This document shows positions 3,085 to 12,806 of a stretch of 28,542 bases of DNA, in pieces (position 1 is the first letter of the stretch; the number at the start of each line of letters is the position of its first letter). The stretch is taken from NCBI GenBank assembly GCA_030628925.1, contig DAOVQA010000001.1:1-28542 (forward strand), given 5' to 3'. The stretch comes from Candidatus Bathyarchaeota archaeon. GTDB taxonomy: Archaea > Thermoproteota > Bathyarchaeia > Bathyarchaeales > Bathycorpusculaceae. The position numbers and the translations under genes were made by a program. The notes beneath the pieces were generated by a model. That model had not been told where the DNA came from. It worked only from the letters and a program-made list of their open reading frames with translations, and made no database searches.

Positions 3085-3741
3085 TTACGGTGGAAGTTTC
3101 TTCTTGCACAGGAACCAGTCTACGCATTCATAGCCTTCCTGTAAACGTTTTTCTGCTGCTTCCTGTGTTGCTGGTGGAGGAACTATTACGTCGTCTCCTG
3201 GGCGCCAATTTGCTGGAGCAGCCACTTTGTATTTGTCAGCAGTTTGCAAAGCATCTACGAGTCTTAAAATTTCCTGCATGTTCCTGCCAACATTTAGCGG
3301 GTAGTAAATCATGGCTCTTAGTTTCATTTCAGGATCAATTACAAAGACGCATCTGACGGCTGCGGTTGTGCTTTCGCTTGGGTGTATCATGCCGAAAAGA
3401 TTAGCAACTTTCATGTCCAAATCAGCTATTACTGGAAATGGTATTGTTATTCCAAACTTTTCTTTAATTTTTCTTGTCCAAGCAATATGCGAGAAGACGC
3501 TGTCGATGCTTAATCCTATTAGCTTCACGTTCCTTTTCAGCAATTCATCGCTTATCCTAGCGAACGCAACAAATTCTGTTGTACAAACTGGAGTAAAATC
3601 TGCAGGATGAGAAAACAGAATAACCCATTTCCCCTTGAAATCTGAAAGCCTTATTTTTCCATGAGTGGTAACTGCCTCAAAGTCTGGAACAGTTTCACCT
3701 AATCGCAAGAACGGTTTCTTCTCTTCAACTTTCTCTTCCAT
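3085..3741 (-). CDS. Peroxiredoxin (Prx6/archaeal type)
   Basis: [12 protein letters not shown] peroxidatic motif, YYPLNVGRN and C-terminal CVDWFLC. Likely start is ATG 3741. Confidence 0.96.
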
Positions 3742-8185: not shown

Positions 8186-8609
8186 CCACAAATCTTAAGG
8201 GAACAAATGATACACACTACCAGATAGTATTCCTAAAAGCTACCAATTGATTTTATGAGTTACGTACCCAAACGTTGGGATAGTAAGATGCTTGCATCTT
8301 GAGAAAATGTTATGTTGCAACAAGTCAAAAAGCCAAGCATTCTGAAAGCAACAGGAAGGCAGTTTGAAGAAATGGAAAAGAATCTAAAGCGCGCGCGAAT
8401 TTTGTTGTTTTTGAATTCCCCGAATGGACGACAGTTTCTACCATAAAAAGCGAAACCATAAGCTATATCAATTTCCAAGCCAGAGAGCACATAAATAGGC
8501 TCAAAGAAATCCCTGAAATAAGTGATGGCTTGTTTTCTCCCACTTCTTTTCAGTGCGACAACATGTGAATATGAACCAAATGATTTATCTTTAAGCATGT
8601 TAGCGCATG

Positions 8610-8934
8610 CAGTGCAAAAGGAGTGATGAAATCTTGGAAAACCAGATGTCTCAAAGTCCACTTTACAATATTCCGACATTGGAAGGGTACAATGGAATAT
8701 CACCGCACCCGCGATCTCCTGTACGTAAAGCAGATCCTTGGACACAAAAGCATCCAGAACACAATGATATATATCCAATATGAAAAAGCACTCTTTGGAA
8801 CACCGGTGAATGAGGAGTTTACAGTCAAAGTCGCCACAAACATACAAGAAGCATACGCGCTTGCAGAAGTCAGCTTCGAATAGGTCACCGGAGAATACAA
8901 TGACGGCGGCAAAATCTTCAGGAAACAAAAATAA
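8610..8934 (+). pseudogene. Decayed tyrosine recombinase/integrase (C-terminal remnant)
   Basis: Reads ...FRHWKGTMEYHRTRDLLYVKQILGHKSIQNTMIY (RH, LGH and catalytic Tyr retained; the His of HxxR reads as Thr). After the in-frame TAG at 8881-8883 the frame continues VTGEYNDGGKIFRKQK* to 8934, resembling the usual integrase tail. No N-terminal half is recognisable. Confidence 0.85.
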
Positions 8935-9013
8935 AAAGTACTAAGGTTCGTTAAGAAAAGGGTAAGGTTTATTCGAGTGAAAAGACATTCTGCATGATGC
9001 TCCGCGTAGTAGG

Positions 9014-9115
9014 GCTCCGGTAGAAGAGTTTAATCAGCTCTACCGAATATAGCCCGGTTAAGTATTCCGGCCTTTCGAGCCGAAGACCCGGGTTCGAATC
9101 CCGGCCGGAGCACCA
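9014..9115 (+). tRNA. tRNA-Glu(UUC) with a 24-nt intron (9024-9047) between positions 10 and 11; CCA encoded
   Basis: Spliced sequence GCTCCGG TA GTA TAGCCCGGTTAAG TAT T CCGGC CTTTCGA GCCGA AGAC CCGGG TTCGAAT CCCGG CCGGAGC A CCA folds as a cloverleaf; anticodon TTC at 9074-9076; one C27-A43 mismatch. The intron forms a bulge-helix-bulge-type motif. Confidence 0.93.
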
Positions 9116-11348: not shown

Positions 11349-12806
11349 ATGTCGGAACAGGATATAAAGAAGCCGGAAAACAAGGAGGAATTCACGAAAG
11401 TGTTAATGACCATCGCGAAAAAAGAGTCAGAAGCCCGCAGCTTCCTAAAGGGAAGGCCGACAAAACCTACAATTTCCGGCACAGCCAAATTGATGAACAT
11501 ACACAGAGATACTCTTTATACATGGCTTAAGGAGTTCAACGTCGACTTTAAAAGGATAGCTGACGTTGTATCGACAGCTCAAGCGATAGAAACTGTCGGA
11601 ACCCCTAGAAAGCATATCTATCTAATCGGAGAAGCTTTGATGGGACAGGGAAACGAGGTTGCCCACATAGACCTGTTAATAGGGGATAAAGAAGGCCCTG
11701 TCGGAGAAGCCTTCGCCACCGGCATATCCAACCTTTCCAAAGGACACACACCACTCCTAGCTGTTATACGACCAAACTTACCCCCTAAACCGCACACACT
11801 ACTTGTCCCAAAAGTCACCATAAAGAACACAGAAGACACAAACAAGATCTTTGGCCCAGCACAGGCAGCAGTCGCGAAGGCTGTTGCAGATTCTGTTGAA
11901 GAGGGACTAATTCCAAAAGACAAAGTAGATGATTGGGTCATAATATGCAGCGTTTTCATGCATCCAAAAGCAAAGGACTACCGAAAAATCTACCACTACA
12001 ATTATGGAGCAACCAAGCTAGCTCTGAAAAGAGCGTTAACAAACTATCCACCCTTAGAAAAGATCCTATATGACAAGGACAGAGCTAAACACCCGATAAT
12101 GGGATTCAAAGTGCCACGCCTATGGAGACCACCATACCTACAGATCGCACTCGACATACCAGATTTAAGACGAAACAAGAAAATCATAGCCTCACTTCCA
12201 AAGAGCGACAGAATAATACTTGAGATGGGTACACCCCTCATAAAAAGATATGGAACAAAAGTGATAAGCGAAATGAGAGAAGATGCCAGAGACTTATTCT
12301 TCGTTGCAGACCTAAAAACCCTAGATGTTGGTAAAGTTGAGGTTGACCTAGCCTACGAGGAAACAGCAGACGCAGTTGTTGCCGCCGGATTGGCACCCGT
12401 TGAAACATTAAATGCCTTTATCCACGAAGCAAAAAGACTTGGAATATACGCAGTGGTAGACATGTTAAATATGCAAGATCCAATCAGAAAACTCAGAATG
12501 CTTAAGGAATTCCCTGACATAGTGATTTTACACAGGGGAATAGATCAGGAAACCGGAAGAACCCTTGGCTTAGAACTCATTGAGGAACTACGGCAAGCCT
12601 TTAAGGACAGGAAATTCCTTATCGCCGTTGCAGGTGGAATAGTGCCGGAAACCGCAAAAGAAGCTCTACAAAAAGGAGCAGACATACTCATTGTTGGAAG
12701 GTTTGTGACACAATCTAGGGATGTTGAACGAGCTGTAAGAGAACTCCTTGAACTGACGCCTGAAATGCAAAAAGATATCGACTTATTCAGAGTACATGTA
12801 GAGTAA
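11349..12806 (+). CDS. fae-hps: Bifunctional formaldehyde-activating enzyme / 3-hexulose-6-phosphate synthase with an extra N-terminal HTH domain
   Basis: Fae motifs GEAL.G.GNEVAHIDLLIG and GPAQAAVAKAVADSV; Hps motifs LQIALD, E.GTPLIK, DLKTLD.G, HRGID and AVAGGI. Residues 1-89 form an extension containing TISGTAKLMNIHRDTLYTWLKEF. Confidence 0.93.
   Translation: MSEQDIKKPENKEEFTKVLMTIAKKESEARSFLKGRPTKPTISGTAKLMNIHRDTLYTWLKEFNVDFKRIADVVSTAQAIETVGTPRKHIYLIGEALMGQGNEVAHIDLLIGDKEGPVGEAFATGISNLSKGHTPLLAVIRPNLPPKPHTLLVPKVTIKNTEDTNKIFGPAQAAVAKAVADSVEEGLIPKDKVDDWVIICSVFMHPKAKDYRKIYHYNYGATKLALKRALTNYPPLEKILYDKDRAKHPIMGFKVPRLWRPPYLQIALDIPDLRRNKKIIASLPKSDRIILEMGTPLIKRYGTKVISEMREDARDLFFVADLKTLDVGKVEVDLAYEETADAVVAAGLAPVETLNAFIHEAKRLGIYAVVDMLNMQDPIRKLRMLKEFPDIVILHRGIDQETGRTLGLELIEELRQAFKDRKFLIAVAGGIVPETAKEALQKGADILIVGRFVTQSRDVERAVRELLELTPEMQKDIDLFRVHVE

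Follow-up and report, generated by a model that had tools for sequence, protein, structure and literature searches.

A leader copy of the acceptor strand probably allows splicing of a position 10/11 intron in tRNA-Glu(UUC) of Bathyarchaeia

Our analysis points to a folding conflict built into a tRNA gene of a sediment archaeon of the Bathyarchaeia, and to a short element in the leader of the same transcript that would resolve it. In the window, by which we mean the whole analysed stretch of 28,542 nucleotides (positions 1 to 28,542 of contig DAOVQA010000001.1, assembly GCA_030628925.1), positions 9014-9115 of the + strand read as a tRNA-Glu(UUC) gene with an encoded CCA. We consider it likely, with a probability of roughly 0.8, that this is a functional, single-copy gene with a protein-spliced intron of the bulge-helix-bulge type at position 10/11, processed through a splicing-first pathway that involves a decoy in the leader. 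Modelling indicates that a spare copy of the first acceptor strand, carried by this leader, probably holds the 3' end of the tRNA so that the splicing signal can form. An earlier note, made from the letters of this DNA, had described the intron and its motif; the leader copy, which on the models would settle the conflict between splicing motif and acceptor stem, was absent from that finding. In the proposed pathway, transcription would start at the leader copy of the 5' acceptor strand, which would pair with the 3' strand of the tRNA (nucleotides 67-72) as a surrogate acceptor stem and leave the real 5' strand free for the splicing motif. An (alpha-beta)2 EndA that bears the crenarchaeal specificity loop would cut both sites and RtcB would join the exons; with the intron gone, the real 5' strand would retake the 3' strand, the cloverleaf would form, and RNase P would then remove the leader, an order in which splicing would come before 5' maturation. 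We infer splicing, cut sites, start site, decoy role and processing order from comparative sequence, enzyme content and modelling.

The insertion lies within the 5' strand of the D stem, and its boundaries are set by intron-less orthologues. The 3' acceptor strand, CCGGAGC (9105-9111), finds its complement GCUCCGG at 9014-9020, 24 nt too far upstream for a normal tRNA, and intron-less orthologues in related genomes read GCTCCGGTAG and then directly TATAGYC, with no insert between. Exon 1 (9014-9023, +) accordingly supplies tRNA nucleotides 1-10, namely the 5' acceptor strand (1-7, complementary to 9105-9111), U8, A9 and G10; the 24-nt intron occupies 9024-9047 (+), with its first base and its last two (AA) bulged; and exon 2 (9048-9115, +), assigned from the sequence, Rfam and the intron option of ARAGORN, carries nucleotides 11-76, including the anticodon UUC at 9073-9075 and the T arm at 9088-9104 as read from the sequence, the 3' acceptor strand at 9105-9111, A73 at 9112 and the encoded CCA at 9113-9115. 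Excision of exactly 9024-9047 yields the same layout as in the intron-less tRNA-Glu genes and restores a canonical tRNA sequence, as removal of a protein-spliced (BHB) intron should, and the spliced form folds as a cloverleaf with a G10-U25 pair in the D stem. The predicted cut is fixed between nucleotides 10 and 11 because a shift of one base either way alters G10 or U11, and orthologues may have A, G, C or U as the final base of the intron, next to exon bases that do not vary. When 60 related genomes were searched at the DNA level, the matches fell into two groups, one over the whole stretch, in genomes of the same genus and further ones from its family and order, and one from 9048 onward only, comprising intron-less tRNA-Glu genes. 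The earlier note had placed a 24-nt intron at 9024-9047, position 10/11, and the orthologues that read across the junction bear this placement out. Dozens of species share the insertion, and their hairpins show compensatory changes; it is not a product of chance. Both exons are colinear on the + strand and 24 nt apart, which is not the arrangement of a split or permuted tRNA gene. Automated tRNA finding fares poorly on this layout: default ARAGORN reports a shifted gene at 9037-9115 and misses exon 1, the Rfam tRNA model also misses exon 1 and matches 9046-9104 only (model positions 9-63), and ARAGORN with the intron option returns the correct ends, 9014-9115, with a false 33-nt intron.

The whole splicing motif spans 9012-9055 (+). 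Its central 4-bp helix, referred to here as H, pairs 9018-9021 (CGGU, tRNA nucleotides 5-8) with the intron sequence ACCG at 9042-9045, and is accompanied by bulges at 9022-9024 and 9046-9048, an intron hairpin formed by 9025-9030 with 9036-9041 around a 5-nt loop, and an outer helix of 9012-9016 with 9051-9055 that includes the leader bases 9012-9013 (GG). The predicted 5' cut, between 9023 and 9024, falls after the G of the 3-nt bulge AGA that separates H from the hairpin. The predicted 3' cut, between 9047 and 9048, falls inside a 1 x 5 internal loop, in which five unpaired bases (two of the intron, then U11, A12 and U13) lie opposite C4, followed by the outer helix of U3-A14, C2-G15 and G1-Y16 and then by leader bases paired with D-loop bases. 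The 5' site is a textbook H-bulge-h' arrangement and the 3' site is relaxed, without a canonical 3-nt bulge; a strict hBHBh' motif, with two 3-nt bulges, a 4-bp helix and flanking outer helices, is thus matched at the 5' site and not at the 3' site. The motif is of the relaxed HBh' class, a recognised variant of the archaeal splicing motif (PMC6379350). Most of this architecture had been anticipated: the layout of helix, bulges and hairpin agrees base for base with the earlier proposal, the relaxed 3' side corresponds to the 1 x 5 loop, and the outer helix that was thought to borrow two leader nucleotides recurs among homologues, being at least 4 bp long and reaching into the leader in 64/76 intron-bearing genes against 16/60 intron-less ones. 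Pairing of leader positions -1 and -2 with D-loop bases is far commoner in intron-bearing genes, and the 64/76 versus 16/60 contrast argues that an outer helix with leader bases is a selected feature.

The same design was seen across 38 unique introns of 16-38 nt, part of which were retrieved with a pattern that itself fixes AAG...CCGAN, and it was seen again in a looser set in which only the exon edges were fixed. H is paired in 38/38 of the unique introns, with an intron strand of ACCG, GCCG or, once, GCUG placed immediately before the last two intron bases; in the same 38, the 5' bulge is always A9 and G10 followed across the cut by A, and the 3' side is always A and any base followed across the cut by U11. 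The hairpin of these 38 introns begins at intron base 2, has 2-9 bp and shows four to six pair types, Watson-Crick or wobble, at each of positions 3-7, so that compensatory changes across homologues support it. The minimum-energy fold given by RNAfold is a continuous 7-bp helix (CGGUAGA with UCUACCG) that absorbs the 5' bulge and is preferred over the bulged form; the UAG at the end of exon 1 and the AAGA at the start of the intron make this alternative possible. This preference within the model is a caveat for purely thermodynamic readings of the locus.

Because H is built from acceptor-stem nucleotides 5-8, the splicing motif and the cloverleaf are mutually exclusive, and it is here that the leader would matter. 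Folded explicitly under the Turner model, the transcript predicted for the window gene (8999-9115) reaches -40.7 kcal/mol in a splice-competent fold, made up of the copy paired with the 3' strand, the outer helix, H, the hairpin and the anticodon and T arms, against -32.5 kcal/mol in the fold with the real acceptor stem. For the precursor without leader the order is reversed, at -23.2 and -30.4 kcal/mol respectively. The same reversal was computed for 24 single-intron orthologues, with the splice-competent fold favoured in 24/24 when the leader is present and the acceptor stem favoured in 24/24 when it is removed; on these models, then, the splice-competent fold is favoured only when the leader is present. 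Ensemble calculations over 56 genes give a probability of 0.02 for the real acceptor stem and 0.86 for H with the native leader, 0.88 and 0.19 with no leader, and 0.19 and 0.71 with the copy scrambled. As H still reaches 0.71 with a scrambled copy, the rest of the leader (spacer and outer helix) matters as much as the copy in the ensemble model. For the spliced RNA with its leader attached, the cloverleaf of the window gene is computed at -26.1 kcal/mol and the copy-paired fold at -22.7 kcal/mol, and the cloverleaf is favoured in 15/24 orthologues, the other nine being ties within 0.6 kcal/mol. The modelled return to the cloverleaf is supported only among such tRNA-like folds; in the unconstrained ensemble of the spliced, leader-bearing RNA the pairing of copy and 3' strand is still preferred, and the return would depend on tertiary contacts or on RNase P capturing the RNA. 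The suggestion in the earlier note that splicing precedes RNase P cleavage agrees with these energies and stays a modelled order of events.

The leader copy, GCUCCG at 8999-9004 (+), is where the primary transcript is predicted to begin, and its ability to pair with 9106-9111 (tRNA 67-72) was verified base by base. It is followed by a variable spacer (9005-9013, +) whose last two bases, GG at 9012-9013, extend the outer helix. GCTC[CT]G is found in the leader of 74/74 true intron-bearing genes, counted as unique leader-plus-intron combinations, against a chance expectation of about 2% of such leaders; a T precedes the copy in 71/74 and a G follows it in 55/73, and the spacer from copy to G1 is 2-11 nt long in all but two genes and is not conserved in sequence. 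Upstream lies a TATA-like box (TTTATTCG, 8968-8975, +) preceded by a purine-rich, BRE-like stretch, and its function as a promoter is suggested by archaeal promoter geometry. In 63/74 orthologues an A/T-rich box with a purine-rich 5' flank stands 31-36 nt upstream of the G of the copy, whatever the length of the spacer. Archaeal transcription starts at a set distance from the TATA box, typically at a pyrimidine/purine pair, and together with the distance of the box this geometry leads us to infer that transcription starts at the leader copy. The possibility that the copy is an alternative exon 1 was considered and rejected, as most genomes lack the UAG that would have to follow it and the copy in the window has an extra base.

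Because the acceptor stem of tRNA-Glu is invariant, tRNA-Arg was compared in place of a formal analysis of covariation between copy and 3' strand. A tandem GGGCGGG pattern gave nine matches in 151 genomes, eight of which are tRNA-Arg genes with an intron after nucleotide 9 (position 9/10); these genes (L267-L274), from four families of Bathyarchaeia, carry a leader copy GGGCGGG 3-10 nt upstream. The copy in these 9/10-intron genes is one of their own acceptor strand, different from that of tRNA-Glu, and the leader copy thus varies with the acceptor sequence of the tRNA. Other leaders were noted along the way. Among truncated tRNA matches in the relative G001, the only other gene is a tRNA-Arg(UCU) with a D-loop intron and no leader copy. 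The tRNA-Asp(GUC) gene L240 (G001:C9, same genus) has an insertion in the variable region, no intron near its 5' end and, in its leader, two wobble-rich copies (GUCUUGA and GUCUUGG) of the 5' acceptor strand GCCCUGG. In three intron-less tRNA-Glu(CUC) genes of family f7 (L212, L217, L218) the leader copies tRNA nucleotides 7-18 (GTAGTATAGTTC...) and not the acceptor strand. The tRNA-Glu(CUC) genes L145-L159 (family f35, genus g113) have D-loop and T-loop introns, a leader (CTGGGAGCC) that resembles the 3' acceptor strand and a trailer that repeats part of the D-loop intron, which could be the mirror image of this design, suited to introns that lie close to the 3' strand.

A strict pattern recovered the same intron in 69 species-level genomes, the carriers being Bathyarchaeia; the few matches in bins labelled otherwise are probably mis-binned contigs. 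Bathyarchaeia are a TACK lineage, the kind in which, according to the earlier note, non-canonical positions are concentrated. With a loose pattern, in which only the two exon edges were fixed, 54/401 sampled Bathyarchaeia genomes of many families matched, a control pattern giving 0 on matching strands. The number becomes 53 once L195 is dropped: this apparent exception without a copy is a chance match of the pattern in coding sequence, and the 3' half of a tRNA is lacking downstream of it. All such counts overstate the support, given that orthologues are not independent of one another. The intron occurs in UUC genes of the order to which the window belongs and also in CUC genes belonging to other families; only a minority of the window's own family (6/103 genomes) has it, and intron-less tRNA-Glu junctions are common (216/401 genomes). 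Some tRNA-Glu genes, among them L050, L060, L065 and L080, have two or three introns, the one at 10/11 being joined by others in the D loop (about 20/21) and at 37/38, from which we gather that intron load varies widely between close lineages. In the window's own assembly (1.21 Mb, 79% complete) no second tRNA-Glu gene was found. Same-genus genomes, one of them 100% complete, have one intron-bearing UUC gene and one CUC gene each, the latter with an intron in the anticodon loop only. An intron-less Glu(UUC) copy, the existence of which would have undercut the earlier proposal, was found neither in the window's own assembly nor in the 100%-complete same-genus genome. With a sole Glu(UUC) gene, GAA codons therefore depend on the gene that bears the intron.

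The window's own genome encodes RtcB and one EndA protein of 186 aa (contig C190), which can be aligned from one end to the other with the S. tokodaii and A. pernix catalytic subunits (2CV8, 3P1Z_B) and keeps a His where the 3AJV sequence has Ala. In this alignment its crenarchaea-specific loop, GKPLGIPKPK, matches the region of A. pernix K44 and has Lys at the K44 position, a residue reported to confer broad specificity (PMC6379350). The protein thus shows the Tyr/His/Lys residues and the crenarchaea-specific loop lysine of an alpha subunit, and by sequence the endonuclease is of the broad-specificity crenarchaeal type, the kind that had been thought necessary for such an intron. A beta paralogue was not found in the 79%-complete assembly. 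Among five relatives searched, all four that are at least 94% complete have a second EndA paralogue of similar size, and the fifth (80% complete) has a single EndA match, of the second-paralogue type; the G001 copy, the sole one translated, has no His at the catalytic position as read from its sequence. This second paralogue, His-less in G001, points at the level of sequence to a probable (alpha-beta)2 EndA. As to the subunit type that the earlier note had asked for, an alpha subunit is assigned in the window's own genome and a putative beta subunit in its relatives. RNase P RNA is present in five relatives and was not found in the 79%-complete assembly of the window's organism.

It could be argued that the intron is spliced as described and that the leader copy itself is without a role, a relic of the origin of intron or gene through a local duplication of exon 1, or of the attachment site of an integrative element, the motif being able to form without it. 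The leader of G021 does contain a perfect 10-nt copy of exon 1, the copy in the window plus one extra base matches mature nucleotides 1-12, a tyrosine-recombinase remnant lies just upstream (8584-8883), scrambling the copy lowers the probability of H modestly (from 0.86 to 0.71), and a few intron-less genes keep a copy, namely one UUC gene (L213) and two CUC genes (L170 and L171). Against this, conservation is limited to the six to seven bases able to pair with the 3' strand, while the spacer and the remainder of any copy of exon 1 vary freely across families; the sole substitution in the core of the copy, C to U, stands opposite G68 and so leaves a wobble pair in place; and the tRNA-Arg genes with 9/10 introns have the same arrangement with a different sequence. 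Conservation confined to pairing-competent bases would be difficult to explain if the copy were a neutral relic of a duplication, and we regard a copy without function as fairly unlikely. An attachment site was rejected as a general explanation for the copy, as the two repeats are 9 nt apart and enclose no element, the integrase remnant is found outside the pair and accompanies the tRNA gene in only two further lineages although the copy is universal, and the part of the copy that spans the junction is not conserved. Alternatively, the copy may be functional in something other than splicing, as an initiation or promoter-proximal element, or through a pairing of leader and 3' end that controls 3' processing, CCA status, stability or the timing of RNase P whether or not an intron is present. 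Its position exactly at the predicted start site, with a pyrimidine/purine pair, would fit such a role, as would the two wobble copies in the leader of the congeneric tRNA-Asp gene, which has no 5'-proximal intron. The intron-less UUC genes of genus g45 (family f7), in which one genome still has the 10/11 intron, speak on both sides, the copy being intact in L213, wobble-compatible in L045 and L053, and decayed in L215 and L220, so that in some lineages it decays after loss of the intron. In 11 genomes with both kinds of Glu gene the copy is confined to the intron-bearing gene, the intron-less Glu(CUC) genes presumably being expressed without it, and those CUC genes in which the 10/11 intron is present carry the copy as well. 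We hold a role unconnected with splicing to be improbable.

A third reading, in which the insertion is not removed and the gene is a decaying pseudogene, or in which removal occurs at other sites or by another mechanism, appears to us highly improbable. It could appeal to the continuous, unbulged helix of the minimum-energy fold and to the public RNA runs, which gave no spliced reads: the four runs compared with the locus yielded only relatives' contigs or the conserved 3' exon and not a junction, and one run deposited as RNA, which contains an intron-bearing gene of a relative, is probably of DNA. What stands against it is the pattern of conservation, with the gene kept over many families, perfect conservation of the exons alongside drifting intron loops and covarying stems, the last intron base free (A, G, C or U) next to invariant exon bases, and this being the sole Glu(UUC) gene of a complete congener. 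Splicing at 10/11 with the help of the leader copy is the reading we retain.

Archaeal tRNA introns at non-canonical positions, including an acceptor-stem intron at 3/4, and relaxed motifs are known, as PMC4090602 and PMC6379350 describe. The tRNA-Glu intron resembles these cases in being short and outside 37/38, in having its sites set by a bulge-flanked 4-bp helix with one side relaxed (HBh'), and in occurring in a genome whose other tRNAs also carry non-canonical introns. It differs from them in its position, which is not in the lists of the reviews consulted, in drawing on acceptor-stem nucleotides 5-8 for the central helix and in being accompanied by a conserved leader copy of the acceptor strand. 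The positions given in PMC4090602 include 3/4, 20/21, 22/23 and others, and 10/11 is not among them; the earlier view that 10/11 is at least rare holds with respect to that list and fails inside Bathyarchaeia, where the intron is common and roughly 13% of the genomes sampled have it. Archaeal tRNA genes that are split or permuted, known from Nanoarchaeum equitans, Caldivirga and Thermofilum pendens (PMC4033280, PMC3218864), offer a second comparison: there too, sequence outside the mature tRNA (leader or trailer) pairs to give the structure that EndA needs, and RNA folding dictates the order of processing. Unlike in those genes, the tRNA-Glu exons are colinear, 24 nt apart and in one transcript, and the leader would occupy the competing strand while adding just 1-4 bp of outer helix to the cut motif. 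The tRNA-Arg genes of Bathyarchaeia with 9/10 introns are a further parallel, sharing a 5'-proximal intron and a leader copy of their own acceptor strand; the tRNA-Glu case differs in having the widest sampling in our hands, within-genome controls and examples of loss followed by decay. In the literature searched we found no description of such a leader copy or decoy, and the question of how a splicing motif forms against a very stable acceptor stem was not addressed there.

Several features of the neighbourhood and of the genome deserve mention in their own right. The tyrosine recombinase remnant just upstream of the tRNA-Glu promoter (8584-8883, +) has a C-terminal ...LGH...Y motif and frameshifted pieces back to about 8300, and the 222-aa ORF that runs opposite to it (8260-8928) matches no known family. 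Recombinase remnants of a similar kind lie upstream of tRNA-Glu in G004 and L105 and near the RNase P RNA loci of relatives. Further along the window, 11349-12806 (+) encodes a Fae-Hps fusion of a formaldehyde-activating enzyme and a HUMPS-family domain; at its N-terminus it has an additional stretch with a weak match to a helix-turn-helix. Among other tRNA genes of the same assembly, a CAU-anticodon tRNA (C159:620-729, -) has an insertion of about 33 nt in the variable region and no leader copy, and a tRNA-Arg(UCU) (C97:5802-5909, +) has D-loop and anticodon-loop insertions, again with no leader copy; its same-genus orthologue L265 has a D-loop insertion and a contiguous anticodon loop. A tRNA-Pro(GGG) gene on contig C2 (about 3120-3290, -) has its true 5' acceptor strand some 100 nt upstream of its T arm, and the interval contains two D-arm-like segments that resemble each other.

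Transfer RNA annotation is affected directly, as exon 1 escapes standard tRNA finders and the only Glu(UUC) gene would be annotated as truncated or missing in Bathyarchaeia genomes. Beyond this one gene, we lean, at slightly better than even odds, towards the view that Bathyarchaeia use a general cis-acting device, a decoy copy of the 5' acceptor strand at the very start of the transcript that makes introns directly after the acceptor stem (8/9 to 10/11) spliceable and enforces splicing first and RNase P second; it would amount to a conformational switch built into the pre-tRNA, with the tRNA-Glu 10/11 intron as its most widespread example. A surrogate strand encoded in the leader would turn a folding conflict into an ordered processing pathway, a proposal that can be tested on some 70 orthologues.
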